DNA from: an uncultured Methanolobus sp. | Lineage (GTDB): Archaea > Halobacteriota > Methanosarcinia > Methanosarcinales > Methanosarcinaceae | Direction: 5' to 3' | DNA length: 64,000 nucleotides | Assembly (NCBI GenBank): GCA_963675495.1 | Contig: OY776215.1 | Coordinates: forward strand, 608,001 to 672,000 | Part shown: in pieces, positions 1-13,717 of the stretch | Layout: the number at the start of each line of letters is the position of its first letter | How positions within the stretch are numbered: the stretch's first letter is position 1 | Notes under the pieces: generated by a model | Told to the model about the DNA's origin: nothing | The model's database searches: none | What the model saw: the letters and a program-made list of their open reading frames with translations, nothing else | Made by a program: the position numbers and the translations under genes

Positions 1-77
1 CGCTGCTTCGCGCGGGCGATAACACTACCTATGGCTATCTCCTCATTGAATGCGGGAATTACAGCTACTGTCGTCAT
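1..77 (-). CDS. 5' end of a family 2 glycosyltransferase (runs off the window start)
   Basis: Not in the ORF track. The minus strand reads MTTVAVIPAFNEEIAIGSVIARAKQ, the canonical GT2 N-terminus (IPAFNEE), with a GGTGG RBS-like element upstream. Confidence 0.85.
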   Translation of the reverse strand, partial: MTTVAVIPAFNEEIAIGSVIARAKQ

Positions 78-419
78 TGATCCAACCACCACTTTCCTTT
101 GTGCTGCGCAACCCCCGGCATTTGAAAATGCATTCGGGCGCAGACATCAATGTATATATGAGTTACATTTATCCAATATACTGCTTAAAGATTGCTTATT
201 GGATATAAAACTTTCCAAGTCATCATGTGAATTGTTTTATAAGTGATATAAAATATAACTAGTCGCATATATTTAGCAATTGTTCGCTTGTGTGCGAATG
301 TTTAACAGTGTGAAAATGAGAAACATCGGAAGTACACCATACTAACAGATCAATTAATTAAAAAGACTGCGCTATGGATCAACCTATAAAAGGAAAAAAA
401 GTCTCAGCCTGCTTATCCC

Positions 420-602
420 TTATACTGGGACCTGACGCTGAGGTACAGGGAAATCAGTGAGAGCGTGAATATTATTGTCAAATGAATTGGATCTTGCAGC
501 CAGGACACGGTATTTGCCACAGTAGGTGCCGCCGCCGTTCTCAGTGCAGGTCATGGATGTAGAACTTGCGTGCTCGCACTTGTCATAGTATTTGCATTTC
601 AT
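420..602 (-). CDS. Small Cys-rich hypothetical protein (60 aa)
   Basis: MKCKYYDKCEHASSTSMTCTENGGGTYCGKYR with 4 Cys. A GAGG RBS precedes the ATG at 602; the longer ORF-track start runs into the repeat motif and is unlikely. Confidence 0.6.
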   Translation of the reverse strand: MKCKYYDKCEHASSTSMTCTENGGGTYCGKYRVLAARSNSFDNNIHALTDFPVPQRQVPV

Positions 603-777
603 TTTTGTTCCTCTATATAGCCACATTATTAGTAATATGTTATATAGTTTTTTATTTATAAATTTAGATTGTGGAACAAGTGATCTTCGAGGAATTATAG
701 GATACATCTTAGGGTATTTGTGTGCATTGGTAAGATTTTTGGAAAAATGAAGGTGGTGTGGATACTTAGATGCAATA

Positions 778-806
778 CAACCATCCGCCGCATGCGGCAC
801 GGTCCA
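778..806 (+). repeat. Cassette-boundary hairpin motif copy 1
   Basis: CAACCATCCGCCGCATGCGGCACGGTCCA. Confidence 0.85.
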
Positions 807-877
807 TTGTCACTGATATAGAAAGACATATGCAGGAGCAACGCAAAGTGAAGAATCAGAATGATAAAATCCTGAGT

Positions 878-1164
878 TTAACAACGGTTAAATCTTTGCC
901 TTAATTTATCGTAAATCGAAGATCTATAATCTACAGCATAAAAAATAATATTGTGCATGACATCAATATCAAACACTATTCTGTATTTCCCCACCCTATA
1001 CCTATAATATTCGAAACACTGCAATTGCTTGGTATTAGCTGTAAAAGGATCAATTAAATTATGCACTCTATTGAACGAACGATCTTTTTGACATCAGCAG
1101 GATGCTTCTTACGAATTGCTTTTAAATCTTTCTTAATTAAAAACATTCGTAAAGATACCTTCAT
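878..1164 (-). pseudogene. RelE/ParE-family toxin, frameshifted near 1064-1070
   Basis: MKVSLRMFLIKKDLKAIRKKHPADVKKIVRSIE in one frame continues in another frame as HNLIDPFTANTKQLQCFEYYRYRVGKYRIVFDID (RelE motif YRxRVGxYRIVF). Lies directly downstream of an antitoxin. Confidence 0.75.
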
Positions 1165-1167
1165 ACC

Positions 1168-1347
1168 TCATTCTAATCCAAATTCATCTTTGAGCTCTTT
1201 AAGAGTACAAACATTGCCTTCTTTAAGATCTCTTTTTGCTTCCTCGATGCGTTTAATAGTCTTTGAGCTCAAAGGCATAGAGTCAACATCAGTAATTGTA
1301 GAACAAGATCTTTTCGTTTTAGAACATGGATGAGTATTTAGAACCAT
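1168..1347 (-). CDS. Archaeal RelB-like antitoxin (59 aa)
   Basis: Not in the ORF track. Reads MVLNTHP...PLSSKTIKRIEEAKRDLKEGNVCTLKELKDEFGLE, a typical archaeal antitoxin C-terminus. Its stop is 3 nt before the toxin ATG. Confidence 0.7.
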   Translation of the reverse strand: MVLNTHPCSKTKRSCSTITDVDSMPLSSKTIKRIEEAKRDLKEGNVCTLKELKDEFGLE

Positions 1348-1488
1348 TTATATACAATATCTCATGCACACTTAAATAAGTAGTACCAAAAATGGCTCTT
1401 TAGAAATCTCCAATATTCGAACTTCTCAGCGGTTCGTATTTTAAGAAGGTAGCAAATTTATCTTTCCGACCTGCTAATTTAAGCTTTA

Positions 1489-1577
1489 TTGTCGTAACAA
1501 TTATTGTTTAAACAATAATACGTAACATCTACCAGAATAGATTTACGACGTAGCTATGAACTATCAGGAATACAACG
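1489..1577 (+). repeat. 89-bp non-coding duplicated segment, copy A (contains a 20-bp perfect palindrome)
   Basis: Ungapped match to 4066-4154 with 7 mismatches. ATTATTGTTTAAACAATAAT at 1500-1519. Confidence 0.9.
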
Positions 1578-1607
1578 CAACCACCCCGCAAAAGGCGGCA
1601 CATTCCG
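1578..1607 (+). repeat. Cassette-boundary hairpin motif copy 2
   Basis: CAACCACCCCGCAAAAGGCGGCACATTCCG. Confidence 0.75.
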
Positions 1608-1689
1608 ACACCATAAAAGAACAGGACAAAACCGATATCCCATCAAAAATAGACCCACAAAAACATTTCCAGCTCCAAATACAAAAGAA

Positions 1690-1953
1690 TCAATATATTA
1701 CATCATGGTGATCATAATCAAGTATCATGATTGCTTTTTTATCCGCATCTATTTCATAGATCAGCACAAATGAAGAGTCAATATGTACCCTCCTTGCACC
1801 GTGCAGATCACCACGTAATGGTTTATAGTGATACGGATTCAAGATTATCTGTTGAACTTTCTTGCTGATAATATTCATCTGCTTAGGATTCTTTTTAGCA
1901 AGCTTCATGAATTTCTTATCAGCAAGCTCGGATACAACAACGCAATACTCCAT
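1690..1953 (-). CDS. RelE/YafQ/StbE-family mRNA interferase toxin
   Basis: 87 aa with NPYHYKPLRGDLHGARRVHIDSSFVLIYEID...HHDVIY; downstream of a small antitoxin. Confidence 0.85.
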   Translation of the reverse strand: MEYCVVVSELADKKFMKLAKKNPKQMNIISKKVQQIILNPYHYKPLRGDLHGARRVHIDSSFVLIYEIDADKKAIMILDYDHHDVIY

Positions 1954-1958
1954 TATGT

Positions 1959-2186
1959 TTACCCGTAGCGTTCAGAAAAATCACTTACATGGACAAATTT
2001 ACCCTTCCTGATATTGTCAAGTTTTTCCAGGTATTCCTGACTTGCTTCCGGTTCCCTGGATATTACACTCTCCATGAACATCTGTATCTGTTTGCTCATG
2101 CTCATACCATGTGATTTACACAGGGCAGAGAACTCCTTATATGTATCTTCATCCACATTGAAAGTCTTTAATACCATTGAGATCAC
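1959..2186 (-). CDS. Antitoxin (ribbon-helix-helix-like N-terminus)
   Basis: LKTFNVDEDTYKEFSALCKSHGMSMSKQIQMFM fits an RHH pattern. Ends 5 nt before the toxin start. Confidence 0.75.
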   Translation of the reverse strand: MISMVLKTFNVDEDTYKEFSALCKSHGMSMSKQIQMFMESVISREPEASQEYLEKLDNIRKGKFVHVSDFSERYG

Positions 2187-2191
2187 ACCAA

Positions 2192-2268
2192 TTATTTAAT
2201 ATTTAATAATCTTATTTAATGTTTAATAACATTATTTAATCATATTTAATCATATTTAATCATATTTA
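2192..2268. repeat. AT-rich short tandem repeats (TTTAAT units, CATATTTAAT x~3) upstream of the TA operon
   Basis: attatttaat atttaataat cttatttaat gtttaataac attatttaat catatttaat catatttaat catattta. Confidence 0.7.
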
Positions 2269-2359
2269 CCCCCATACATATCAAGTTTTTTCAATTGATC
2301 AAAATGATATAGATCATTTAAACTTTGTAGAAAGATTCTACTTTAAATAAGCTGCAATA

Positions 2360-2388
2360 CAACCATCCACTGCAGGCGGCACTATCCA
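2360..2388 (+). repeat. Cassette-boundary hairpin motif copy 3
   Basis: CAACCATCCACTGCAGGCGGCACTATCCA. Confidence 0.85.
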
Positions 2389-2499
2389 CAATTACTGCAA
2401 AAAAGAAGATATATAGCCTGCTGATCAAAGAACGATCTCCAGCATTATCAGCGTATTTTCCATAACACATAAATAGTACGGAATTAAATCATAATTATT

Positions 2500-3930
2500 A
2501 TGTTCCGTAATTTCATTAATCGTGTCCATGAACTGGAATTCCTTAACAGGGAATATAGTTCAAAAGATCTTTCTTTCACCGTCATCTACGGACGCAGGCG
2601 AGTAGGCAAAACAGAACTTATCCAGCAGTTTGTGAAAGACAAGCCCCATATCTTCTTTCTGGCGGACATGAGAGGCACACGATCCAATACCCTCAGATTC
2701 AGGAAAAAAGCTTCAGGCTTATTCGATGATATAGAACCTGCAGCAGAGGCATTTGATGATGTGTTCGAATACATAAGTAAAAAATGGAAAAGTTCCAAAA
2801 AGCTTGTCATAGTTATCGATGAGTTCTCCTATCTGGCACAGACCGATAGATCCATACCGTCAGTATTCCAGCTTATCGTTGATGAGATACTCAAAGGAGG
2901 ACATTTCCATCTGATACTCTGTGGCTCATCCATTTCCATGATGGAAAAAACAACTCTTTCCCATTCAAGTCCTCTTTATGGAAGGAGGACAGGACAGATC
3001 AAGGTCATGCCACTGAGTTTACGCCACATGACTGGTTTTTCCCCGGAATCAACACCAGAAGAGCTTTTAAAAATATATGGTGCAACTGGAGGAATTCCTT
3101 TCTACCTCAGATTCTTTGATCCTGGAAATGATCTTTATGAGAACATAGGACAACACATATTTTCCAAAGATGCAGTATTATATGCCGAAGGCGAGTTCCT
3201 TCTTCGCGAAGAATTGAGAGAGCCGGCAACTTACATGAACATCCTTTATTCCATCTCCAAAGGTAGCACAAAAGCAGGAGAGATCGCTGCTGGCGCTTTC
3301 ATTGAAACAAAGGATCTATCATACTATACAGATACTTTGATGAGGCTTGGCTTTATCAGGAAAGAGCACCCTGTTGCAGAAAAAACATCTACCCGTAAAA
3401 CGATCTACGTTATAGATGACCCTTTTCTGCGCTTCTGGTTCAGATATGTACTGATACATAGAGATTCCATAGAAGCAGGTGATAATTCGCATGCCATCCA
3501 GGACCTGGATAAGAGCTACGACCGTTACCTGGGGGAAACGTTCGAACAGGTATCCAAAGAGATCCTTACATACCTCAATTTACAGGATAAACTCCCTTTC
3601 AGGTTCAGATCCATAGGCAGACAATGGGGAAAGATACCTAATATACCAAAAGGTAAAAATGACTATGAAATTGACCTGGTGGCCCTTGATCAGGATTCAA
3701 AGAACATACTCTTCTGTGAATGCAAATGGCAGAAGCAGAAGGTCAATACAGATGTCTACTTCAACCTGAGAGAGAAAGCGTGTCATGTAAAGTGGTTCCC
3801 CGAGAGAAAAGAACACTTTGCACTTATCAGCAGATCGGGTTTCACAAAAAAGATGCATGAAATAGCAAAGCAGGAGAATGTTCTGTTACTTACCCTGCAT
3901 GATTATTTGTCCAGATCTTCTGCTGAATAA
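2500..3930 (+). CDS. Archaeal AAA ATPase (ATPase_2) with wHTH and DUF234 PD-(D/E)XK nuclease-like domain
   Basis: FINRVHEL, Walker A YGRRRVGKT, Walker B IVIDEF, LCGSS, PLYGRRT, DPFLRFWFRY, and EIDLV...FCECKW. Confidence 0.9.
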   Translation: MFRNFINRVHELEFLNREYSSKDLSFTVIYGRRRVGKTELIQQFVKDKPHIFFLADMRGTRSNTLRFRKKASGLFDDIEPAAEAFDDVFEYISKKWKSSKKLVIVIDEFSYLAQTDRSIPSVFQLIVDEILKGGHFHLILCGSSISMMEKTTLSHSSPLYGRRTGQIKVMPLSLRHMTGFSPESTPEELLKIYGATGGIPFYLRFFDPGNDLYENIGQHIFSKDAVLYAEGEFLLREELREPATYMNILYSISKGSTKAGEIAAGAFIETKDLSYYTDTLMRLGFIRKEHPVAEKTSTRKTIYVIDDPFLRFWFRYVLIHRDSIEAGDNSHAIQDLDKSYDRYLGETFEQVSKEILTYLNLQDKLPFRFRSIGRQWGKIPNIPKGKNDYEIDLVALDQDSKNILFCECKWQKQKVNTDVYFNLREKACHVKWFPERKEHFALISRSGFTKKMHEIAKQENVLLLTLHDYLSRSSAE

Positions 3931-3941
3931 GTTCAAGAATA

Positions 3942-3965
3942 CAACCTCACTGCAAAGGCAACACA
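3942..3965 (+). repeat. Cassette-boundary motif copy 4 (degenerate)
   Basis: (AATA)CAACCTCACTGCAAAGGCAACACA, 11 nt after the ATPase stop. The hairpin is eroded. Confidence 0.5.
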
Positions 3966-4009
3966 TAAAAATAATATTGTGCATTACGACTAAAAGGCGT
4001 AAGGGTAGA

Positions 4010-4044
4010 GAAAGCCCACGCACTTTAGTCATGGGAGCAGTCAC
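4010..4044 (+). mobile_element. IS200/IS605-family right-end remnant (no transposase or TnpB)
   Basis: GAAAGCCCACGCACTTTAGTCATGGGAGCAGTCAC resembles the typical AAGCCCACGACTTTAGTCGTGGG...TCAC subterminal hairpin and terminal TCAC. Confidence 0.65.
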
Positions 4045-4065
4045 AACCTATCAATTCATGCGTTG

Positions 4066-4154
4066 TTGTCATAACAATTATTGTTTAAACAATAATAAGT
4101 AACATCTACCAGAATAGATTTACGATGTATCAATGAACTATCAGGAATACAATA
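4066..4154 (+). repeat. 89-bp non-coding duplicated segment, copy B
   Basis: 82/89 identical to 1489-1577; palindrome at 4077-4096. Confidence 0.9.
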
Positions 4155-4183
4155 CAACCATCCGCCGAAGGCGGCACGGTTCA
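4155..4183 (+). repeat. Cassette-boundary hairpin motif copy 5 (best stem: CCGCC-GAA-GGCGG, outer AACC/GGTT)
   Basis: CAACCATCCGCCGAAGGCGGCACGGTTCA. Confidence 0.9.
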
Positions 4184-4265
4184 CAATTACTGAAAAAAGA
4201 TGAGTTATAGCCTGCTGATCAAAAAATATATATATATAAAAAATAAAAAAAATAATCAAAGGAAC

Positions 4266-4862
4266 TCAAAACATTATCTTTGCCTTTATCTGAGCTAATT
4301 CATGTTCTATTGTTGAGATCCTCTCGTCAAGATGAGACCTGAAATCATCCCTGTTCAACCGAACCTCGGATGCTATTTCTGTTCTGTTTTGGTCAATCTT
4401 TTCACCAACCACATCGATCTTATCACCCAATCCATCGATCTTCCCACTTACGACTTCGACTTTACTGCCAACCGAATCAACCCCATCACCGACCCTGTCG
4501 ATCTTCTGCCCGAGATTCGAGTTCATTTCACGCATATACCTCACAGCTGCATCCATTCGCTCATAAGTTGCTGTGGTCAGATCCTCGTCTCTGACTATCT
4601 CAAATGTACCATACTCGCCAGTTGCTTTTGTGTAGACTACATCGATATTCGTTACACGTATAGGATATTGAGTGATGTTGACTTTTTCAAGTAACTCCCT
4701 GATGCTGCCCTCTGTACCCTCACAGACAACTTGCACCGTGCCATCATCGAGATTTTTGACATATCCATTAAGAGCCAGATCAAAAGCTATTTCGTCAATG
4801 AAATCCCTGAAACCTGCTTTCTGAACTCTGCCATGTATTATGACCTCTGCACGCTTCTTCAT
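4266..4862 (-). CDS. Acylphosphatase domain fused to a C-terminal heptad-repeat coiled coil
   Basis: HGRVQKAGFR and GYVKNLDDGTVQVVCEG acylphosphatase motifs, then KIDRVGD/GVDSVGS/KVEVVSG/KIDGLGD/KIDVVGE heptads. Probable start MKKRAEV at 4862. Confidence 0.8.
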   Translation of the reverse strand: MKKRAEVIIHGRVQKAGFRDFIDEIAFDLALNGYVKNLDDGTVQVVCEGTEGSIRELLEKVNITQYPIRVTNIDVVYTKATGEYGTFEIVRDEDLTTATYERMDAAVRYMREMNSNLGQKIDRVGDGVDSVGSKVEVVSGKIDGLGDKIDVVGEKIDQNRTEIASEVRLNRDDFRSHLDERISTIEHELAQIKAKIMF

Positions 4863-4942
4863 AAGAGTTGATTTTTCCTGAAGCAATATAAACGTTATTA
4901 TCATATCTCATTAACAAGCCAGAAATAATCACAGAACTTAAA

Positions 4943-4971
4943 CAACCACCCGCCGCAGGCTGCACACACCA
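4943..4971 (+). repeat. Cassette-boundary hairpin motif copy 6
   Basis: CAACCACCCGCCGCAGGCTGCACACACCA. Confidence 0.8.
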
Positions 4972-5015
4972 TCACCAAAAATGTAAAAAGAAAATCCGGA
5001 GAATAGTCTTTGCCC

Positions 5016-6314
5016 TCATTCAAGCAACCATTTCCACACAGGCCTAACACTTATTTTCCTGCCATCCATTTCAAGCGCTTCCTCCGTATCTTCCGTGAGT
5101 ATGAGACCTTCTTTCAGCCCGTACTTATCCATAGCTTCCAGAAGTCCTGCTATCTCTCTTTTTTCATTTGACCATTCCATCCTCTGAGTAACCTGTATTG
5201 CTTTTATGATATGTCCCTTCTCCATCAATATGAAATCACACTCATTCTTATCCACGTGGTAATAGATATCATGCCCCCTGTTTTTCAATTCAAGGAATAC
5301 AATGTTCTCAAGTGTTTTGCCTGTATCCTTTGAGAATTTGAAGGCAAGAACGTTCATCAGTCCTGTATCTATGATATAGGCCTTCTTCTTTGAATATATC
5401 TGCTTTTTAAGAGAGTAATCAAAAACATTGATCGTAAAGATCAGATAAGAGTTCTCCAGATGATCTATGTAATTTTTCACTGTTGTCTGGCTGCCAATTC
5501 CTAGGACGTTCTTTAACCTGTTATAGCTTATCTCAGTTCCGGGATTAGTTATCAGATAATACGCAAGGGATCTTATTGCAGTCTCGTCCTTAATACCATA
5601 TCTTGCGATAATATCCCTGTACAGGATGTTATCATAGAGGTTCCTGATTATGTCCTTATTTCCGTATTTATAATACTCTGGAATGCCGCCATTTTCAAGA
5701 TACTGACTGAATTCTTTTTTGATCCTTGCTCTCTCCTCTGTCAGATAAAACTCCTTTTCAGTTTCTATGCCTTTTGAACCCATCAGCTCTTTGAATGAGA
5801 AAGGATAGAGTTCAAGTTTCACATGTCTTCCGGTAAGCTTTGTCCCCAGCTCCCTGCTCATCAAAGAAGAATTTGAGCCGGTGATGTAGAATTTGAAACC
5901 CCGGTCATACATCCGCCGTATGAATGCTTCCCAGTTGGGTATGTTCTGTATCTCATCAAAGAAAAAGACCTTGCTCTCTTTTGATGTTTCCAGAAATGAT
6001 TCATACAGGGCATTGAAATCGCCTACTTTGAAGTCAAGCAACCTTTCATCTTCAAAATTCATGTAATATATGTTATCTTCCGGATAGTATCTTTTTTTTA
6101 TCTGTTTTAAAAGGGTGCTTTTACCCGCACGTCGCAGACCAGTGATAACCACTATATGAGGAATTTGGGAGTAACTTTCTATTTCTTCAAGCTTCTGGCG
6201 CTTTATTGTCGGCACCTCCATTTCAAACTCCTGCTTTTGCTCTGCTATAAGCTCCTTTATCTGCATAATATCCATAAATTGCATTCTGTGATGAATGCAT
6301 ATATATATTTCCAT
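5016..6314 (-). CDS. AAA_14 ATPase with DUF4143 domain
   Basis: GLRRAGKST, FFFDEIQN, ITGSNS, LTGR, GGIPEY, KKAYIIDTGL, LENIVFLEL, ECDFI. The true start may be a downstream Met (~6269). Confidence 0.9.
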   Translation of the reverse strand: MEIYICIHHRMQFMDIMQIKELIAEQKQEFEMEVPTIKRQKLEEIESYSQIPHIVVITGLRRAGKSTLLKQIKKRYYPEDNIYYMNFEDERLLDFKVGDFNALYESFLETSKESKVFFFDEIQNIPNWEAFIRRMYDRGFKFYITGSNSSLMSRELGTKLTGRHVKLELYPFSFKELMGSKGIETEKEFYLTEERARIKKEFSQYLENGGIPEYYKYGNKDIIRNLYDNILYRDIIARYGIKDETAIRSLAYYLITNPGTEISYNRLKNVLGIGSQTTVKNYIDHLENSYLIFTINVFDYSLKKQIYSKKKAYIIDTGLMNVLAFKFSKDTGKTLENIVFLELKNRGHDIYYHVDKNECDFILMEKGHIIKAIQVTQRMEWSNEKREIAGLLEAMDKYGLKEGLILTEDTEEALEMDGRKISVRPVWKWLLE

Positions 6315-6393
6315 TTAAAATGGAGATTATTACTCACAAATTGTCATTGATAATGGAGATTATAGCAATGATATCTCCATTTAAAATAGAGAC
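6307..6393. promoter_or_regulatory. Three imperfect palindromic boxes (TCTCCATTTAAAATGGAGA-like) at 33-bp period
   Basis: ATGGAGAT starts at 6320 and 6353, ATAGAGAC at 6386. The boxes overlap the 5' region of the ATPase gene. Confidence 0.55.
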
Positions 6394-6444
6394 ATTGCAC
6401 TCCAAAGTACATTATACGAAAAGTCTATGAACGCATATCGACCA

Positions 6445-6474
6445 AAACCATCCCGCTGCAGGCGGCACAGTCCA
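6445..6474 (+). repeat. Cassette-boundary hairpin motif copy 7
   Basis: AAACCATCCCGCTGCAGGCGGCACAGTCCA. Confidence 0.85.
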
Positions 6475-6577
6475 TCAATACTGTTGTAACAAGAATGTAT
6501 AGATATTCTCTAGGCAATGTTGCAAAGAAAAAAGAACATAAACACATGTGATCAGTTATGATCTTTATTGCATCCAT

Positions 6578-7858
6578 TCACTCAAGCAGCCATTTCCACA
6601 CAGGCCTCACGAAGATCTTCCTTCCATCCCTTTCGATCATATCTTCAGTATCCTTTGTAAGTATGAGACCTTCCTCCAGATCATAGGTCTGCATTGCTTC
6701 ACGTAAACCTTCGACCTCACGTTTTTTGTTGTCCAGGTTCAGCTCCTTTGTCACCTGAATAGCATTGGTTATTTTATTATCTGCTTTTATCAGAAAATCG
6801 CACTCATATGTACCTTTATGGTAGTAAACTTCGTTCTGTCTTCTTATAAGCTCTATAAAGATCAGGTTTTCAAGCAGTCTGCCGTAGTTCTCTGAGAACT
6901 TGAAAGACACTGCATTTATCATACCAGTATCAAGGCAGTATATCTTCTTTGGATTTGCAAGTTGTTTCCTGAGAGAATAATCAAATTTTTTGATGGAATA
7001 TAATAAGTATGAGTCTTCTGCGTAGCTCAGGTACTCTTTTACCGTATCTGCAGATATTTCCAAGACATTTGCTATGCTGTTGTAAGAAAAAGGCTTGCCA
7101 ACATTTGAAATAATGAAGTATAGCAAGTTTATTACATCCCTGTTATTCCTCAGTTTATGTGGAAAGATTATGTCTTTCAGGTATATGGTCTCATAATAAT
7201 TTTTTAAAAGCTCTTCTTTGATGTCATTGTCCCCTTCAAGAGAGATCCGGGGGAAAGAACCATGCTTGAGATATTCCTCGAACTCCAGTTTTTTCTCACC
7301 GGATGTCAGCCTTTTGAGTCCTTTGAAATCCAGATATTCTTTAAAGGTTAGTGGAAAGACCGTTACTGCAAGGTATCTTCCTGAAAGACGTGTGATGGTC
7401 TTCTTTTTAAGTAGGGATGATGTGGAACCCGTCAATACAAATTTCAGGCGCTTGTCAGTATCGTATAATATTTTCAGTGTCTGCGTCCAGTACCTGAAGT
7501 TCTGGACCTCATCAAGAAAAATGTAGTATCTTTCTTTTTTCGTTGCCGCGATATGATCTTCAATGATACCCGAAAGAAGAACGGCACTCTCTGACCTGCT
7601 CTGGAACACCGGTTCATCAAGGTTTATGTAAAGTACCGACATGGCCTCGTTTTCAGGCAGTTCAAGACTGCTGATAAGCTGGTATATGAGAGTTGACTTG
7701 CCCGTCCTTCTTGCACCAAGTATTAGCAGTATCTCTTCCGTACCCATATATTTGGCTAAACGTGGATAATAATGAAGACGAGGTATACTCGTACTGTAAC
7801 TTTTTCCGAACCACCCCGGATTCTGCTTTTCCAGCACTTCTTCGATCAGTTGTTCCAT
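6578..7858 (-). CDS. AAA_14 ATPase with DUF4143 domain (paralog of 5016-6314)
   Basis: GARRTGKST, IFLDEVQN, LTGSTS, LSGR, KKIYCLDTG, LENLIFIEL, ECDFL; shares the C-terminus DGRKIxVRPVWKWLLE. Confidence 0.9.
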   Translation of the reverse strand: MEQLIEEVLEKQNPGWFGKSYSTSIPRLHYYPRLAKYMGTEEILLILGARRTGKSTLIYQLISSLELPENEAMSVLYINLDEPVFQSRSESAVLLSGIIEDHIAATKKERYYIFLDEVQNFRYWTQTLKILYDTDKRLKFVLTGSTSSLLKKKTITRLSGRYLAVTVFPLTFKEYLDFKGLKRLTSGEKKLEFEEYLKHGSFPRISLEGDNDIKEELLKNYYETIYLKDIIFPHKLRNNRDVINLLYFIISNVGKPFSYNSIANVLEISADTVKEYLSYAEDSYLLYSIKKFDYSLRKQLANPKKIYCLDTGMINAVSFKFSENYGRLLENLIFIELIRRQNEVYYHKGTYECDFLIKADNKITNAIQVTKELNLDNKKREVEGLREAMQTYDLEEGLILTKDTEDMIERDGRKIFVRPVWKWLLE

Positions 7859-7895
7859 AATGACTTATTTGTTTTTCAAGTTAAATAAAATTACC

Positions 7896-7944
7896 GATTA
7901 TAATCTATGATTTACAGCAGAAATTCAGATTATAATCGATGATT
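7896..7944. promoter_or_regulatory. Two GATTATAATC palindromic boxes 32 bp apart upstream of the ATPase
   Basis: GATTATAATCTATGATT at 7896 and GATTATAATCGATGATT at 7928. Confidence 0.5.
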
Positions 7945-7989
7945 GTGTGATATATATACTTCAATCACAAACTTCCATATAAAAAATAA

Positions 7990-8016
7990 TAACTCCGCCG
8001 CGGGCGGCACAGTCCA
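7990..8016 (+). repeat. Cassette-boundary hairpin motif copy 8
   Basis: TAACTCCGCCGCGGGCGGCACAGTCCA. Confidence 0.8.
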
Positions 8017-8084
8017 TCCATTATACATAAAAACAATTATACTGACAAATTACAGATCAAAAAAAAAAGCCCAAAACTAACCTT

Positions 8085-8669
8085 TCACTCCAAAGGCTCA
8101 TAACTAAAACCAAAACCAAGGTCCTTCAGAGCCAGAAGTGCCATGAACATCACACAGAAGATGAAGAACACCGACACGAAACAGGCGAAATTATAGTAGA
8201 AGAAGTCCACGCCTGAGAGTCTGACGTTCATAACGGCAAAGATGCTAAGTGGTTCATTATAGAACGGATACAGGTAAGTAAGGCCACCATCAGCGATGTC
8301 ATCCAGAAGCAGATGGGACAGGAAAGCTGCCTCTGCGAATATCCCCAGGGATGAGGCTTTTGATGTGTTCCTGTATAATACGTATCCAAGCATAAATGCA
8401 AGTATGAATGCCACCAGACCAAAAAGAAGTGAATGTGTAGGAACCGGACCTATCAGTGTATGACTCAGGTTGCCGTGGAGTACATAGTTCCACACCGCAG
8501 GCACGTCCGGGAACACCGAACCCACACTGCCGACAACAAACAATAAGCTCAGGTGTTTTACATCCTTAAAGCTCATCTCCTTGCGAAAGCCACTTCCTGC
8601 AATTGCAAAGATCCCTACAAGGGAAATGCAGAATATGAAGAACGCAAAGTGGAACGCTGGATATGGCAT
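8085..8669 (-). CDS. Membrane metal-dependent hydrolase (YdjM/DUF457-like), type B
   Basis: N-terminal H, GSVFPD, THSLLF, SHLLLDD, YLYPF; several TM segments. Confidence 0.75.
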   Translation of the reverse strand: MPYPAFHFAFFIFCISLVGIFAIAGSGFRKEMSFKDVKHLSLLFVVGSVGSVFPDVPAVWNYVLHGNLSHTLIGPVPTHSLLFGLVAFILAFMLGYVLYRNTSKASSLGIFAEAAFLSHLLLDDIADGGLTYLYPFYNEPLSIFAVMNVRLSGVDFFYYNFACFVSVFFIFCVMFMALLALKDLGFGFSYEPLE

Positions 8670-8764
8670 ATACTAGTATACAAATCAAATATATATAAAT
8701 ATGATGTTAACACCGACATCTTATGAAAAACAATAAATCACCCCATCCACAATACTAACAGCAA

Positions 8765-9289
8765 ATGTTCATCTTCGGCCACATAGGCATAACCCTTGGA
8801 ATACTCACTCTCCTAAAACAGCATCCTGCACTCTCAAAGATGCCCACGTCCCTCTATGTGGTCGCCTTTGGCGCCATGCTACCCGACCTTATAGACAAAA
8901 CCCTTGGAGAGGTCATCTTCGCAAACTCCATAGGCAACGGAAGGATCTACGGACACACGCTGCTCTTCTGCCTGCTGTTACTCCTTACCGCAATTCACCT
9001 TTACAAGAAAAAAGAAGACAAACGTCTGCTCATCATCCCTGCTGCCAGCTTCCTGCATCTTATGGAAGACCGGCTCTGGATGACACCACAGACACTTTTC
9101 TGGCCACTGATGGGATGGCAGTTCCCTGACGGTTACTACTCAACAGGTATACTGGACTATTTCCTGGGGATCTTCAGGAATGCATACACACCTGCACTAA
9201 GTTATGTCTTTGTTTCTGAGATCATAGGCATAAGCATACTATGTATTGCAGGAATCGCTCACTTTAAAAAATCAAAAATAACACACTAA
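8765..9289 (+). CDS. Membrane metal-dependent hydrolase (YdjM-like), type A
   Basis: FGHIG, GAMLPDLIDK, GRIYGHTL, HLMED, LFWP. Confidence 0.8.
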   Translation: MFIFGHIGITLGILTLLKQHPALSKMPTSLYVVAFGAMLPDLIDKTLGEVIFANSIGNGRIYGHTLLFCLLLLLTAIHLYKKKEDKRLLIIPAASFLHLMEDRLWMTPQTLFWPLMGWQFPDGYYSTGILDYFLGIFRNAYTPALSYVFVSEIIGISILCIAGIAHFKKSKITH

Positions 9290-9586
9290 TATGATCCCCA
9301 TCCATAGTGTACCTGATAATACAAGGAAGCAGGAAGCATATATCTCAATTCAGCACATACACATTTCCAGACTTATCCAAACCGGTTACATGCATAGACT
9401 AAATAAAATTAAGAAGATAACAGAAAGATTTATACTATCGCATATGATAATATAAACAAAATATATTATGTTGCACATAAATATTCCAGAAACAATGTTC
9501 ATCCTGAAGCGCGACCCCGGAACAAAAAAGTTATAATTGCATAAAAATCTGCTTATGAACATATCACTGACCCACCGGCAGGAAAA

Positions 9587-12500
9587 ATGAAGACGAGGAT
9601 CGAAGAGAACATCAAGCTCAAAAAACTTGTTACATACTCAGAGGAACTCTTCCAAAGCCCCGCTGACACAATAGACTATCAAAGAATAACCGATGGGATA
9701 CTTGACCTGTCCGAAGCAAAATATGCGGTTTTCAATCTGTTTGAAGAAAAAACAAATTCCTTTTTTACAAAAGCTGTTTCAGGCCCACTTAACGATGTCA
9801 AAAGAATCTATTCGATGATGGGATTCAACCCTGAAGACAAGGGATGGAAAAGGAATCCTCATCTTGCAAAAAAAATTCAAAACCGCAATATCACCCGTTT
9901 TTCTGCTTTTCATGAACTGACCGGAGAACAGATTCCGAAAAAGACCGCAATACTTATGGAAAGAACCTTCGGTGCAGGAGAGACAATTGTAGCAAATATA
10001 TTCAAAGACAATATCAATCTGGGTTATTTCATATTGGTGATGGCTTGCGGAAAACTACTGACCAATGAAGACCTCATCGAAGTCTACACCCGGCAGGTAG
10101 GCCTCTTACTGGACCGGAAAAAAGTAGAAGAAGAGCTTCAATTTCAGTTCAGGTTCCAGAAGATGGTCTCTGAGATATCGGCTTGTTTTGTAAGTGTACC
10201 TGATAAAGAACTGGATAGTATAGTTGATGAGGCACTTAAGAAATGTGCCGTACTGTTTGAAGTCGATCGGGCCCACATATTTCTTTTTTCAGAAAATAGA
10301 ACAAAGATAAGCATTACCAATGAATGGTGCACACAGGGAATAGAATCCCATATAGACAATGTACAGGATCTACGCCTCAACGATTTCCCATGTTTTGAAG
10401 AGATCATAAGAAAGAACGGATACTTGCATGTACCGGATCTTGACAAACTCCCCCCTGAAGCAGATACTGAAAAGGACGTGCTCAAAACACATTCAATTCG
10501 ATCACTTCTGGACATACCCCTTACAAAAGATGGAAAAATTGTCGGCATCATGGGATTTGATGCTACCAGTAACAGGCATGAGTGGAGTGAAGAACAAATA
10601 TCACTTCTAAAAGTGGTAGCCGGGATAATAGCCAGTGCATTTGAAAAGAAATATGAAACTGAAGAATTGATCAATCGGGAGATGCAACTCAATAACGCCC
10701 AGAGGATCGGACACACAGGAAGCTGGGAGTTTGACCTGAACTCAGGAATGGTTCATGCCTCGCAGGAAGCTCACAGAATATATGGACTGGAAAACAGATA
10801 CCTAACCGTAAGGGAAGTGCAAAGCGTCGTACTTCCTCAATACCGTTCAATGCTTGACAAAGCACTTTCCCGACTCGTTGAGGAAAATCATCCATATAAC
10901 GTAGAGTTCAGTATCAAAAAACCAAACTCCGGTGTTGTTCGTCATATACACTCCGTGGCTGAGTATCATGCTGATAAAAATGTAGTGACCGGGACTCTCC
11001 ATGACATCACCGAGCGTAAGGAAGCAGAAGACAGGCTTGCTGAAGAGGAAGTCTGGAAGCACGTACTGATAGAGAATTCCATGGATGGGATCGTAGTACT
11101 CGATAAGACCGGCAAGGTCTACGAAGCTAACCAGCGCTTTGCAGACATGCTGGGTTATTCGCTGGAAGAGGTCAGAAAATTGTCACTATGGGATTGGGAT
11201 GCACAATTTACGCAGGAACAACTACTTCATATGGTCAAAAATGTGCATAAAGCCGAAGATTATTTTGAGGCATTGCACAAGCGTAATGATGGAACGGTAT
11301 TCTATGTTGAGATAAGTGCCATCAGCGCCATGTGTGGCGAACAGGAACTTGTCTTTTGCATGTGCAGGGATATCTCTGACAGGAAACTTTCTGAAGAAAA
11401 ACTGAAGAACAGGACACAAACACTGGACCTGGCACTGGAAGCAACCTGTGCCGGAATATGGGACCTTGACCTGACAACCGGCAACATACAATTGGAAGGG
11501 CTGGAGAGCTGGGAAATGATCACCGGATATACCATGAGTGACTTCCCTGATTTCAACCTTGAAATGTGGGCCGAAATGATACATAGAGATGATATAAGAT
11601 ATGTCACTCAAAAGTTACAGGATACAATTTCCGGTAAAGAACAACGCTATATAGCAGAGTACAGGATGCAACACAAAGAAGGTCACTGGGTCTGGGTTCG
11701 TGCTCATGGCAGGGTTGCAAGGTACGATAGTGCAGGCAATCCCCTCAACATGTACGGAACACATATCAGCATCAATGAAAGTAAGGTGGCTGAAGAAAAA
11801 GCGAAAGCTGCCAGCAGGGCAAAGTCAGAGTTCCTTGCCAATATGAGCCATGAGATACGCACCCCATTAAATGGTATCATTGGTTTTTCCGACCTGCTGA
11901 TGCACTCAGAACTCAAAGAGCAGCAATTGCAGCACATGCAAACGATACACACATCTGCCAATTCATTGCTTGACCTGATCAATGATGTACTGGACATTTC
12001 CAAGATAGAAGCCGGTAAACTGGAATTGGATACGGAAACTATCGACGTGATAGAACTGTGCGAACATATAACAGATATGCTAAAATACAGGGTCCATGAA
12101 AAAGGTCTTGAACTATTATTGAACATCTCACCACAAATACCACGTTATGTTGTGGCTGACCGCTTGAGATTGAGACAGGTGCTGGTAAATCTTTTAGGAA
12201 ATGCCATAAAGTTCACCGAGACCGGGGAAATTGAACTTAAGATTGAAGCTACTGGCAACGATCCAGGTAAGATGGAATTCACATTTTCCGTAAGAGATAC
12301 CGGAATTGGGATCGCAGAGGACAAACTGCCAAGGATATTCGATTCATTCTCACAGGCAGATGGATCGATCACCCGAAAATATGGAGGGACAGGACTTGGT
12401 CTTAGTATCTCTAATGAACTGCTGGAGAAAATGAACTCCAGACTCGAACTTCAAAGCAAAGAAGGGCAAGGAAGCAACTTCTATTTTACTGTATGCCTTC

Positions 12501-13717
12501 CTGCAGAACAGAACGAAAATGTTGCTATTGATGTTCCGGAAAACATCAAAAATGTTCTTATTGTAGATGATAACAGCAACAATTGCCTCATCTTACGGGA
12601 CATGCTTCAGGCAAGAGGACTCAAAGCTGATATTACAACCAGTGGCATAGAAGCAATTGGCATTCTTCGTGATGATAGTGATCACGACCTCATCATTGTC
12701 GATAAGAATATGCCTTCAATGGATGGAGAAGAAATGGTTCGCATCATACATGAGGAGAACAAGCTTTTCCATAATAATACTCCTGTGATCCTGCTAAACG
12801 ATTCTACGGACATTGCCCCAATACATGGTCAACAGGGCATAGGTGCCGGTATAATCAAACCTGTCAGGATGGAAGAGCTTTTCGAAACGATATACCACAT
12901 AGATTCTGCAAAAGGACCGCAAATTAATAACATCATACCCGAAAAAGCTGTTGTATTCATTGCTCCTGATAGCCACCACTATAGTATACTAATTGCTGAG
13001 GACAATGAAACAAATATGCTCCTTGCATCAACCATTATTTCCAATCTTTTACCTAAAGCAACGTTACTGCAGGCAAAGGACGGAAAGGAAGCAGTCCGGA
13101 TGTTCAGGGATAAAATTCCGGACCTTATCTTTATGGATATACAGATGCCCGAAGTAAGCGGGCATGATGCCACATTGATGATAAGGGACCTTGAGAAAGG
13201 AAACGGAGAACATACACCTATCATTGCCCTGACTGCCGGCGTTCTCAAGGGCGAAAAAGAGCGATGTCTTGAAGCGGGAATGGATGACTACATCACCAAG
13301 CCGATAGTAACGGACACCATAAGACACATTTTAAATAGATGGCTGCCTGAATGTGAAACCTCAAAAACTACGGAAAAATGTTCTGAAACAACAGAACCCC
13401 TTCATTTTGACAGGGAACACCTAATGAACAACTTAGGTGGCAGTAAAGAATTGTATGAAAGCCTTATCTCCGCTGCAATAATGTCTTTTACCCGTGATCT
13501 TGAAGACATCATGAGTTCTTTTTCAGAAAATGACATGGACAATATAAAGAGTGTCACACACCGCACAAAAGGTACTGCCCTTAATATTGGTTTCAACGGT
13601 CTGGCAAACCTATCTGCCAATATCGAACAGGCAGTGGACACCGATCATGCAGATATTCCCGTATTACTTGAAAAGATGAGAAGTGACATAGAGTATCTAA
13701 GAGATTACCTGGACTGA
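9587..13717 (+). CDS. Hybrid sensor histidine kinase (GAF, 3 PAS, HisKA, HATPase, 2 REC, Hpt)
   Basis: FLANMSHEIRTPLNGIIG, NLLGNAIKFT, DTGIGI, GGTGLGL, REC VDKNMP and FMDIQMP, Hpt HRTKG. Confidence 0.95.
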   Translation: MKTRIEENIKLKKLVTYSEELFQSPADTIDYQRITDGILDLSEAKYAVFNLFEEKTNSFFTKAVSGPLNDVKRIYSMMGFNPEDKGWKRNPHLAKKIQNRNITRFSAFHELTGEQIPKKTAILMERTFGAGETIVANIFKDNINLGYFILVMACGKLLTNEDLIEVYTRQVGLLLDRKKVEEELQFQFRFQKMVSEISACFVSVPDKELDSIVDEALKKCAVLFEVDRAHIFLFSENRTKISITNEWCTQGIESHIDNVQDLRLNDFPCFEEIIRKNGYLHVPDLDKLPPEADTEKDVLKTHSIRSLLDIPLTKDGKIVGIMGFDATSNRHEWSEEQISLLKVVAGIIASAFEKKYETEELINREMQLNNAQRIGHTGSWEFDLNSGMVHASQEAHRIYGLENRYLTVREVQSVVLPQYRSMLDKALSRLVEENHPYNVEFSIKKPNSGVVRHIHSVAEYHADKNVVTGTLHDITERKEAEDRLAEEEVWKHVLIENSMDGIVVLDKTGKVYEANQRFADMLGYSLEEVRKLSLWDWDAQFTQEQLLHMVKNVHKAEDYFEALHKRNDGTVFYVEISAISAMCGEQELVFCMCRDISDRKLSEEKLKNRTQTLDLALEATCAGIWDLDLTTGNIQLEGLESWEMITGYTMSDFPDFNLEMWAEMIHRDDIRYVTQKLQDTISGKEQRYIAEYRMQHKEGHWVWVRAHGRVARYDSAGNPLNMYGTHISINESKVAEEKAKAASRAKSEFLANMSHEIRTPLNGIIGFSDLLMHSELKEQQLQHMQTIHTSANSLLDLINDVLDISKIEAGKLELDTETIDVIELCEHITDMLKYRVHEKGLELLLNISPQIPRYVVADRLRLRQVLVNLLGNAIKFTETGEIELKIEATGNDPGKMEFTFSVRDTGIGIAEDKLPRIFDSFSQADGSITRKYGGTGLGLSISNELLEKMNSRLELQSKEGQGSNFYFTVCLPAEQNENVAIDVPENIKNVLIVDDNSNNCLILRDMLQARGLKADITTSGIEAIGILRDDSDHDLIIVDKNMPSMDGEEMVRIIHEENKLFHNNTPVILLNDSTDIAPIHGQQGIGAGIIKPVRMEELFETIYHIDSAKGPQINNIIPEKAVVFIAPDSHHYSILIAEDNETNMLLASTIISNLLPKATLLQAKDGKEAVRMFRDKIPDLIFMDIQMPEVSGHDATLMIRDLEKGNGEHTPIIALTAGVLKGEKERCLEAGMDDYITKPIVTDTIRHILNRWLPECETSKTTEKCSETTEPLHFDREHLMNNLGGSKELYESLISAAIMSFTRDLEDIMSSFSENDMDNIKSVTHRTKGTALNIGFNGLANLSANIEQAVDTDHADIPVLLEKMRSDIEYLRDYLD

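Follow-up and report, generated by a model that had tools for sequence, protein, structure and literature searches.

What assembles accessory genes into a row of small, repeat-bounded units on an archaeal chromosome is the question raised by a 64,000-nt stretch of a Methanolobus genome (hereafter the window; G000:C1:608001-672000, in which G000 is the genome studied, a 2.87-Mb single contig, and the other G numbers denote relatives). In the initial annotation, positions 778-8016 of the window were read as an integron-like array of gene cassettes that is delimited by a ~29-bp hairpin motif and served by a trans-acting recombinase. The analysis described here indicates that this motif forms the conserved core, 45-60 nt long, of an interspersed repeat family that is specific to the lineage and occurs in Methanolobus and a few other Methanosarcinaceae genera. 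The system is one of repeat-delimited accessory-gene arrays with an integron-like architecture, most likely shaped by repeat-anchored recombination.

The repeat was located with an nhmmer profile made from the eight sites named in the initial annotation and with a covariance model made from 15 copies. At window 770-8024, the plus strand carries seven clear copies and a degenerate one. The nhmmer matches start at 770, 1571, 2353, 4148, 4938, 6438 and 7981 (E = 8.5e-9 to 9e-5), and the same seven copies were recovered by the covariance model. The remaining site, at 3942, is degenerate, as the initial annotation had noted, with a weak nhmmer match (E = 0.11) and none to the covariance model at E ≤ 1. 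The literal consensus, with up to three mismatches allowed, matches two of the eight sites (778 and 4155; none expected from 100 shuffles), and the window copies differ from one another by substitutions and 1-nt indels. Every copy is intergenic, between long open reading frames (ORFs), and neither method found a further copy at window 8025-64000, in agreement with the initial annotation, which had reported none in the other ~56 kb. The conserved element extends over ~45-60 nt and is thus longer than the ~29 bp originally proposed. Its consensus is approximately A-A-A-C-A-A-n-n-C-AACCA-Y-M-CGCCG-N-A-GGCGGCAC-n-TTCC, after which comes a less strict CTGCT. Counted by column in 94 distinct copies, the core reads AACCAYMCGCCGNAGGCGGCACnTTCC, with a 5-bp stem and a 3-nt loop (a 5-3-5 palindrome), and in most copies the loop is GNA closed by C-G. 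The copies and the units between them, together designated array B, are arranged as follows.

420..602, minus strand: 60-aa Cys-rich ORF, left anchor of array B; from the ORF list, without Pfam match
770..814, plus strand: repeat copy 1; nhmmer E = 2.2e-8, covariance model 52.5 bits
815..1569, minus strand: unit 1, two small ORFs (878-1066, 1168-1347) without Pfam match in G000
1570..1615, plus strand: repeat copy 2; nhmmer E = 9e-5, covariance model 42.7 bits
1616..2351, minus strand: unit 2, ParE-family toxin (1690-1953) and upstream 75-aa ORF (1959-2186); PF05016, E = 5.5e-7
2352..2396, plus strand: repeat copy 3, stem broken; nhmmer, covariance model, fold
2397..3933, plus strand: unit 3, ATPase_2 and DUF234 protein (2500-3930); PF01637, 2e-26, and PF03008, 4.2e-26
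3934..3978, plus strand: repeat copy 4, degenerate; nhmmer E = 0.11, not found by the covariance model
3979..4146, no strand: unit 4, gene-less remnant; repeats D2 and D18 shared with unit 1
4147..4191, plus strand: repeat copy 5, the best copy, with a 5-bp stem; covariance model 55.2 bits, -6.6 kcal/mol, z = -2.83
4192..4934, minus strand: unit 5, acylphosphatase-domain protein (4266-4904); PF00708, 2e-19, and 21-nt periodic repeat D4
4935..4979, plus strand: repeat copy 6, stem broken; nhmmer, covariance model, fold
4980..6436, minus strand: unit 6, AAA_14 and DUF4143 ATPase (5016-6314); Pfam, blastn, boundary sequences
6437..6482, plus strand: repeat copy 7; nhmmer, covariance model
6483..7978, minus strand: unit 7, AAA_14 and DUF4143 ATPase (6578-7858); Pfam
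7979..8024, plus strand: repeat copy 8, outermost, ~60 nt from the conserved ydjM flank; nhmmer, covariance model
8085..8669, minus strand: YdjM-family membrane protein, right anchor of the variable interval; PF04307, 2.5e-9

The repeat is conserved in its sequence and not demonstrably in its fold. When the eight window copies were folded, the full 5-bp stem formed in two and a 4-bp stem in three, two copies had no stem at the core, and the degenerate copy had 3 bp only. The minimum free energies range from -1.2 to -6.6 kcal/mol, and z is below -2 in a single copy (z = -2.83), so the hairpin is present in a weaker form than the initial annotation had stated. Across the five stem pairs in 94 distinct copies from many genomes, no compensatory change was found and substitutions just break pairs; among 470 stem cells, 3 are G-U and 41 are broken, which is no better than shuffled columns.

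Array B has a counterpart elsewhere in the genome. Genome-wide, 20 copies were found with the covariance model and 21 with nhmmer (E < 1), and 16 of them lie in two arrays. Array A, located 20 kb upstream of the window, begins ~105 nt past the argG stop and contains eight copies at G000:C1:582542-588819 (L001 12542-18819), all on the minus strand, with HicAB, MNT/HepT, ParE-like and similar pairs as its modules. The arrays are mirror images (8/8 copies on the minus strand in array A, 8/8 on the plus strand in array B), and in both the 5′ end of the repeat faces a 20-kb island of surface-polysaccharide genes that lies between them (G000:C1:588820-608769). The island encodes a radical-SAM enzyme, epimerases, rmlABCD-type enzymes, a flippase and six glycosyltransferases, and the polysaccharide cluster is interrupted by its one DDE transposase ORF (DDE_Tnp_1; L002 9532-10959). 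A flexible island of 33.5 kb is inserted between argG and ydjM, with array A at one of its edges and array B at the other. The G+C content is 37.1% in array A, 34.7% in the polysaccharide island and 38.1% in array B, with a genome average of 40.5%. Array repeats are 62-100% identical to one reference copy, and each array has its own signature: TACGCC in seven of the eight copies of array A, and T(C)CCGC or TCCGCC in array B.

The interval between argG and ydjM is hypervariable across species. In G004, ydjM lies within ~230 nt of argG, and there is no repeat. In the closest relative, G001 (ArgG 99% identical), the interval is ~6 kb long and contains one repeat copy, with the right part of unit 1 on its left (88% identical to window 1233-1601) and the ydjM flank starting ~100 nt away on its right; the 20-kb island and units 2-7 are missing. 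Minus-strand copies follow argG in G010, G125, G084, G019 and G006, and in G010 four array A modules occur in a different order (586.9k, 582.6k, 585.7k, 587.8k). Array B recurs beside the Cys-rich ORF, which adjoins the first repeat copy in other species as well (blastn identity 72-77%), in G008, G152, G010, G013 and G009, and it extends to ydjM in G012 and G009. Its content differs by species, with the same kinds of modules: ParE, HicAB and MNT/HepT pairs, AAA_14-DUF4143 and ATPase_2-DUF234 proteins, acylphosphatase, a Schlafen/AlbA_2 protein and a PD-(D/E)XK protein. In G012, the order is units 2, 6′, 5 and 7. G152 has the same mirror architecture as G000, with six copies on the minus strand and seven on the plus strand, ~24 kb apart. 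A Methanosarcinaceae metagenome-assembled genome (MAG) and a matching metagenome contig contain a toxin-antitoxin array with 3-4 copies that adjoins an epimerase gene. Orientation within arrays is 9/9 in G008, 6/6 in G152, 4/4 and 5/5 in G010, 4/4 in G013 and 7/8 in G012. The comparison of gene content between the anchors that the initial annotation had suggested shows differences between species in content and in order, and also in two metagenomic relatives.

The positions at which the modules are joined were examined next to the repeat. For the block at window 4940-6474, comprising copy 6, unit 6 and copy 7, the identity is 91.5% with G008, 91% with G152 and 90% with G149. The Cys-rich anchor gene beside the array is only 72-76% identical in G008 and G152, and this much greater likeness of the unit 6 block points to a horizontal exchange that took place after the species had separated. 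On the right side of the block, G000, G008, G152 and G149 share an unusual 5′ half of copy 7 (GACCAAAACCATCCCGC), and these four genomes diverge immediately after ...ACAGTCCA. On the left side, G000, G152 and G009 have the flank of unit 5 in common, together with the 5′ half of copy 6; between G000 and G008, the likeness is confined to the sequence 3′ of the core, which goes with unit 6. Two further joints, seen in metagenome contigs only (depths 5 and 43), concern the same unit. One contig joins window 4863 to 6453 and lacks unit 6; in the other, an additional 1.7 kb lies between 6427 and 6449, on the 5′ edge of copy 7, and the unit 6 gene is replaced by 266 different letters. Together, the boundary comparisons and the metagenome contigs place the joints within the core or at its 3′ edge. 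In run X4, from the same organism in another sample, window 1-10000 is represented by several hundred short contigs, with depth varying ~50-fold between bins; these contigs contain no joints and revealed no variant within the species.

In these comparisons, the intervals act as modules that can be exchanged at one conserved locus. The cassette array proposed in the initial annotation is borne out in this respect, with content and order varying and joints lying at the motif, but the modules have no fixed polarity and often occur without it. The direction of the HicBA module is the same in G000/G010 and G084, with the neighboring repeat inverted. At other loci in other genomes, nine of the 20 homologues examined for units 2, 3 and 7 have a repeat within ~2 kb (one of them weak) and 11 do not; the background density of the repeat in these genomes is ~5-30 copies per 3 Mb.

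The intervals between copies in the window are 0.2-1.6 kb long. Five of the six gene-bearing units of array B are on the minus strand and one is on the plus strand, and array A is mixed. The contents listed in the initial annotation, one unit per interval, were confirmed with Pfam, with refinements for unit 1, which has no Pfam match, and for unit 4. A block of G010 that is homologous to unit 1 (72% identical) matches ParE_toxin (E = 3.8e-6), and unit 1 is likely a RelE/ParE-type pair. Unit 4 shares with unit 1 the repeats D2 (1469-1586, the right end of unit 1, and 4046-4163; 118 nt, 87% identical) and D18 (941-961 and 3967-3987; 21 nt, 95% identical), and by this comparison it is a copy of unit 1 that arose through duplication and has since decayed. 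The 20-nt sequence ATTATTGTTTAAACAATAAT, a perfect palindrome, occurs at 1500-1519 and 4077-4096, ~60 nt upstream of copies 2 and 5, and is kept in G001. Upstream of the toxin-antitoxin pair of unit 2 (window 2191-2260) are AT-rich 20-nt periodic repeats with TTATTTAAT units. Inside the acylphosphatase-domain gene of unit 5 there are 21-nt (7-codon) tandem repeats (window 4384-4506). Three 22-nt repeats with 33-nt spacing lie upstream of unit 6 (window 6305-6392) and a 24-nt direct/inverted pair lies upstream of unit 7 (window 7889-7944); these may be operator or promoter elements of the AAA_14-DUF4143 genes. The left flank of array B also holds a GT2 gene. On the right, a 1376-aa ORF (window 9587-13717) is located just beyond two ydjM-type genes, and in G001 an IS605-type TnpB gene (L033 11133-12497) lies between two ydjM paralogues, just outside the single repeat copy.

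The motif is not specific to the array; it is the core of a dispersed repeat. It is present in 21 of 24 genomes of the same genus, with copy numbers from none (G020, G021, G017, G141) to at least 103 (G009) and at least 139 (G006), the two highest values being lower bounds because 150 candidates were scored. In a sample of the family covering all genera (E ≤ 0.001), 32 of 121 genomes and 4 of 16 genera have it (17/19 genomes in genus g1, 9/10 in g13, 2/13 in g20 and 3/11 in g26, against 0/67 in the twelve other genera), and none of 16 genomes from ten genera of five other families of the order do. In scans of genome contigs and metagenomes, the named records with a full-length core are Methanolobus species and Methanosarcinaceae MAGs; single matches among high-GC bacteria were put down to chance agreement with the 21-nt pattern. 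The covariance model matched (E ≤ 0.001) at 22 of 45 metagenome loci, 32 times in all, and viral contigs gave no exact match to the core pattern.

Many dispersed extragenic copies are present in G006, G009, G071 and G019, and only five lie outside the arrays in G000. The G006 copies are spread over the whole chromosome on both strands, and their context was analyzed for the 30 best loci. At all 30, the core is inside a larger repeated unit of ~200-350 nt, and the consensus of these units starts with GGCTCTGTAGAAATCC and closes with its inverse, so that the unit has inverted GGCTCTGTAGAA ends. No ORF of ≥70 aa overlaps 25 of the loci, and at the other five there is overlap with unscanned ORFs 70-120 aa long. 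The genes on either side converge at 13 loci, are in tandem at 14 and diverge at three, and within the 14 tandem contexts the repeat points with the genes in seven and against them in seven. Of the 60 flanking ORFs, 45 have Pfam matches, almost all to ordinary families (ThiC, thioredoxin, TrpA, SRP54-type GTPase, thymidylate kinase, RNase HII and NrdD among them). The initial annotation had named a scatter after ordinary genes genome-wide as evidence against its array; such a scatter is found in the sister species G006 and not in G000. A second, equally conserved GC-rich core, GGGAAAACGCCGGCTTCGCCGGACCCTTCGGGA, is located beside the motif module at ~230-270 of the 352-nt unit (G006, L003-L032). 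On the opposite strand it reads as two C-GAA-G mini-hairpins, the module order is swapped in some copies, and a partial copy of it lies at G000:C1:1385303-1385439.

The five G000 copies outside the arrays match longer parts of the G006-type 352-position unit. The 16 array copies match positions 85-168 or less, 50-80 positions in the centre of the unit, and none of them matches the left arm. Only two of these 16 copies have the terminal inverted repeat word CTGTAG/CTACAG within 260 nt, and a degenerate GGCTCTTTAGAAATC is found ~185 nt upstream in the left flank of copy 2. In G000, GGCTCTGTAGAA(A) is present 39 times and forms six inverted pairs 0.1-2.8 kb apart (for example 142178/144936, 1720844/1723102 and 2262059/2262721). 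Three of the four gene-bearing pairs scanned bracket one ordinary gene (Tex, an MFS transporter and a PEMT methyltransferase), so this 10-mer, with which the repeat units begin and end, may mark something other than the end of a transposon. The pairs may be cargo-carrying inverted-repeat units or a separate intergenic signal. Comparison of the dispersed copies with five relatives revealed no clean empty site and one filled site common to G000 and its closest relative.

No enzyme could be linked to the repeat. In and beside the arrays of G000, G001, G008, G009, G010, G012, G013, G125, G152 and the MAG no recombinase ORF was found, the only exceptions being IS605 tnpA/tnpB insertions with their own, different end hairpins. 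The tnpA-tnpB element in the G125 array was considered as a driver and rejected: its end hairpin differs from the repeat, and it interrupts a repeat unit and is not bounded by one. The Y1/HUH transposase family PF01797 has no match in G000 or in G009, which has at least 103 repeat copies, and one in G006, which has at least 139; it is matched in 20 of 36 genomes of the genus, unrelated to copy number. The tyrosine recombinase family PF00589 is matched in all 36, with counts that are unrelated to repeat number (14 copies and one match in G013, no copy and nine matches in G020). G000 has six such matches; five are listed, at 248.6, 484.0, 495.3, 862.5 and 2353.7 kb, and the nearest of those listed is ~87 kb from array A. 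Tyrosine recombinases of 198-223 aa, listed for 11 genomes with 3 to >100 copies, were also rejected, as the matches listed include none for G006, G071, G152, G010, G013 or G125. Neither Y1 nor PF00589 proteins could be tied to the repeat as the trans-acting recombinase postulated in the initial annotation.

The arrays were also compared with known systems. attC sites are imperfect palindromes of 57-141 nt with R″/L″-L′/R′ boxes (RYYYAAC ... GTTRRRY). Neither box is present on either strand of the core (94-copy column counts, by reading), and an attC/integron identity was rejected for the lack of boxes and of IntI. The initial annotation was right that the motif is not attC and that the arrays encode no recombinase (consensus, Pfam scans). 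Like chromosomal integrons and clusters of attC sites lacking an integrase (CALINs), such as the Vibrio cholerae repeats, the arrays are tandem, lie at a conserved chromosomal locus, have one short, uniformly oriented repeat between small modules that is homogeneous within an array, and are rich in toxin-antitoxin genes whose content and order vary between relatives. Unlike them, they have neither IntI nor attI, their repeat is 45-60 nt long without attC boxes or a bulged attC stem, their modules have their own promoters, point both ways and are not co-oriented behind a common promoter, two arrays are mirror images, and the same repeat is found genome-wide in a sister species. The architecture is integron-like, yet by every sequence-level criterion the element is not an integron.

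The repeat shares with repetitive extragenic palindromes (REPs), with the mosaic elements (BIMEs) and doublets (REPINs) built from them and with their RAYT transposases a short GC-rich palindromic core, a strictly intergenic location, copy numbers of 0 to >100 among close relatives and a preference of dispersed copies for gene 3′ ends. In PMC3733652, REP palindromes are described as carrying a GTAG or CGTC tetranucleotide at one end, and no such tag adjoins the palindrome here (consensus columns). There is also no Y1/HUH transposase in G000 or G009, the copies are not identical inverted doublets, and module-separating arrays are no REP feature; the repeat is not a RAYT-type REP. As in MITEs (small transposable elements with inverted repeats) and mobile insertion cassettes, the core in the sister species lies in 200-350 nt non-coding intergenic units with inverted terminal words, but the array copies lack those ends, the conserved part is internal and not terminal, and neither a target-site duplication nor a parent insertion sequence was identified (the parent was not sought further). 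The pdif modules of Acinetobacter plasmids, which XerC/D sites flank, are likewise small accessory or toxin-antitoxin modules bounded by copies of a short site, with the enzyme encoded elsewhere, and the arrays here contain no recombinase either; pdif sites are 28 bp long (11-6-11) and alternate in orientation, whereas the repeat has one orientation per array and a 3-nt centre. CRISPR arrays, with identical repeats and short unique spacers of about equal length, differ in that the intervals here are 0.2-1.6 kb long and contain genes, and the repeats are not identical. In Neisseria, dRS3 repeats, intergenic mosaic elements and minimal mobile elements are short repeats that bound exchangeable modules between conserved genes, and the exchange is thought to run via recombination after DNA uptake. 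Those belong to another domain of life and have an unrelated repeat sequence, and the arrays here are long, uniform and made of toxin-antitoxin modules; we know of no natural transformation in Methanolobus. Chromosomal integrons/CALINs and the Neisseria-type repeat-bounded modules are the nearest parallels. In a search of abstracts and of passages of PMC3733652 and PMC10969869, neither the repeat nor arrays of this kind were found to be described for Methanolobus or Methanosarcinaceae.

The explanation that we prefer, with a probability of about 0.45, is that the repeat copies are portable recombination anchors for the modules and that the exchange proceeds via host general recombination. The host machinery would act on short shared homology: recombination between direct copies would delete or duplicate a module, recombination with incoming DNA of another array would swap modules, and recombination between the two inverted arrays would move modules across the island. 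The two arrays and their repeat family, the variability of the locus, the reshuffling of modules and their joints at the repeat are observed; the causal role of recombination there and the identity of its enzyme are inferred. The clustering and uniform orientation of the copies, the differing module orders, the joints and the recent horizontal exchange of the unit 6 block all speak for such anchors. A homology-driven process is favored because there is no linked or co-varying enzyme, copies have decayed, the signatures are array-specific and the array contains an internal duplication; the duplication that gave unit 4 and the array signatures may themselves be signs of homology-driven events. 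Involvement of an integron-type integrase is not thought likely. Several observations weigh against this explanation. The 29-45 nt core is near-invariant in >100 copies per genome and in four genera amid variable surroundings, which argues for selection on the sequence itself, something that plain homology does not need. A length of 45-60 bp at 85-95% identity would be short for homologous recombination. The uniform orientation and the mirror symmetry would be equally expected from a directional site-specific reaction, and the mapped joints, all in the core or at its 3′ edge, would fit a fixed crossover point equally well. A column-by-column test of a flank-linked identity switch yielded 23 and 7 informative pairs, which are too few, and the data are species-level comparisons and contigs, in which no exchange event is seen directly.

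It is possible, if somewhat unlikely, that the arrays are instead a cassette system that is truly site-specific, with the core as the site that is recognized and crossed over by a recombinase or transposase whose gene lies on a mobile element or in another part of the genome. Such an enzyme might conceivably act on a folded single strand, with directional insertion and excision like that of IntI at attC, and the dispersed MITE-like units might, with similar doubt, be the same site on a small mobile element. The high conservation of the core over hundreds of copies in four genera with diverging flanks, the strictly uniform array orientation in at least seven genomes and the joints, which three independent comparisons place in the core or at its 3′ edge, are as expected for such a site, and a conserved locus with variable content and at least one recently horizontally transferred module is consistent with it. 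The GNA loop closed by C-G in most copies also fits, as C-GNA-G hairpins are unusually stable in single-stranded DNA. The lack of compensatory stem changes in the 94 copies, the two window copies that are stemless at the core and the degenerate one with 3 bp nevertheless argue against recognition of a fold, and no recombinase is linked to any array or shows a phyletic link through Y1_Tnp or PF00589 counts. A strict cassette model is also difficult to reconcile with the polarity of HicBA to the repeat, which differs between G000/G010 and G084, and with the 11/20 module homologues elsewhere that have no motif within ~2 kb. We regard as unlikely the more far-reaching version, in which archaea would possess a cassette-capture system not yet described that recombines at the core, analogous to integrons but with another site and another, unlinked enzyme, and that places defence and addiction modules in mirror arrays on the borders of surface-glycan islands; it is equally unlikely that this site also rides small mobile units spread genome-wide in some Methanolobus.

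General recombination between repeat copies and site-specific recombination both account for more of the data than the two explanations that follow. The motif could be a passive remnant, the slowest-decaying part of a selfish MITE/REP-like element, with arrays formed by tandem duplication and no role in exchange, which we consider improbable. The G006 cores inside 200-350 nt units with inverted ends, scattered mostly among ordinary genes, point in this direction, as do the longer unit parts matched by the five non-array copies of G000, the degenerate GGCTCTTTAGAAATC in the left flank of copy 2, the partial decay of array copies and the duplication within the array. The array copies, on the other hand, match only 85-168 or less of the 352 positions, with the terminal word near 2/16 of them. 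Random insertion would not yield orientations of 8/8 and 8/8 in G000, nor the same in six other genomes. The joints of reshuffled modules also coincide with the core, and 9/20 module homologues elsewhere have a copy within ~2 kb at a background of ~5-30 copies per 3 Mb. It is very improbable that the motif acts at the transcript or chromatin level, as a terminator, insulator, RNA-stability hairpin, small-RNA gene or regulator-binding site: its invariably intergenic position, the enrichment at convergent gene ends in G006 (13/30 against 3/30 divergent) and the conservation of sequence rather than structure, as for a protein-binding site, would suit such a role, but array orientation is uniform though the genes point both ways, orientation to the genes is 7:7 in the tandem G006 contexts, array copies have no T-run 3′ of the hairpin on either strand (by reading), searches of array A, the window array and four G006 units against Rfam yielded nothing beyond one chance-level match (E = 0.43), and the coincidence of junctions and the reshuffling of modules are left unexplained.

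The assembly and reshuffling of defence and toxin-antitoxin islands in archaea are poorly understood. According to Ghaly et al., the integrons reported in archaea use canonical attC and IntI. In the present case, exchangeable modules are joined at a different short repeat, within a conserved hotspot of a methanogen genus that can be cultivated; among sister species, the site varies from empty to occupied by long arrays, and the repeat copies number from 0 to >100. Whether a portable 45-nt repeat is enough for cassette exchange or a dedicated recombinase is involved can be tested in the laboratory, and either answer bears on how flexible genomic islands form beside surface-glycan clusters.

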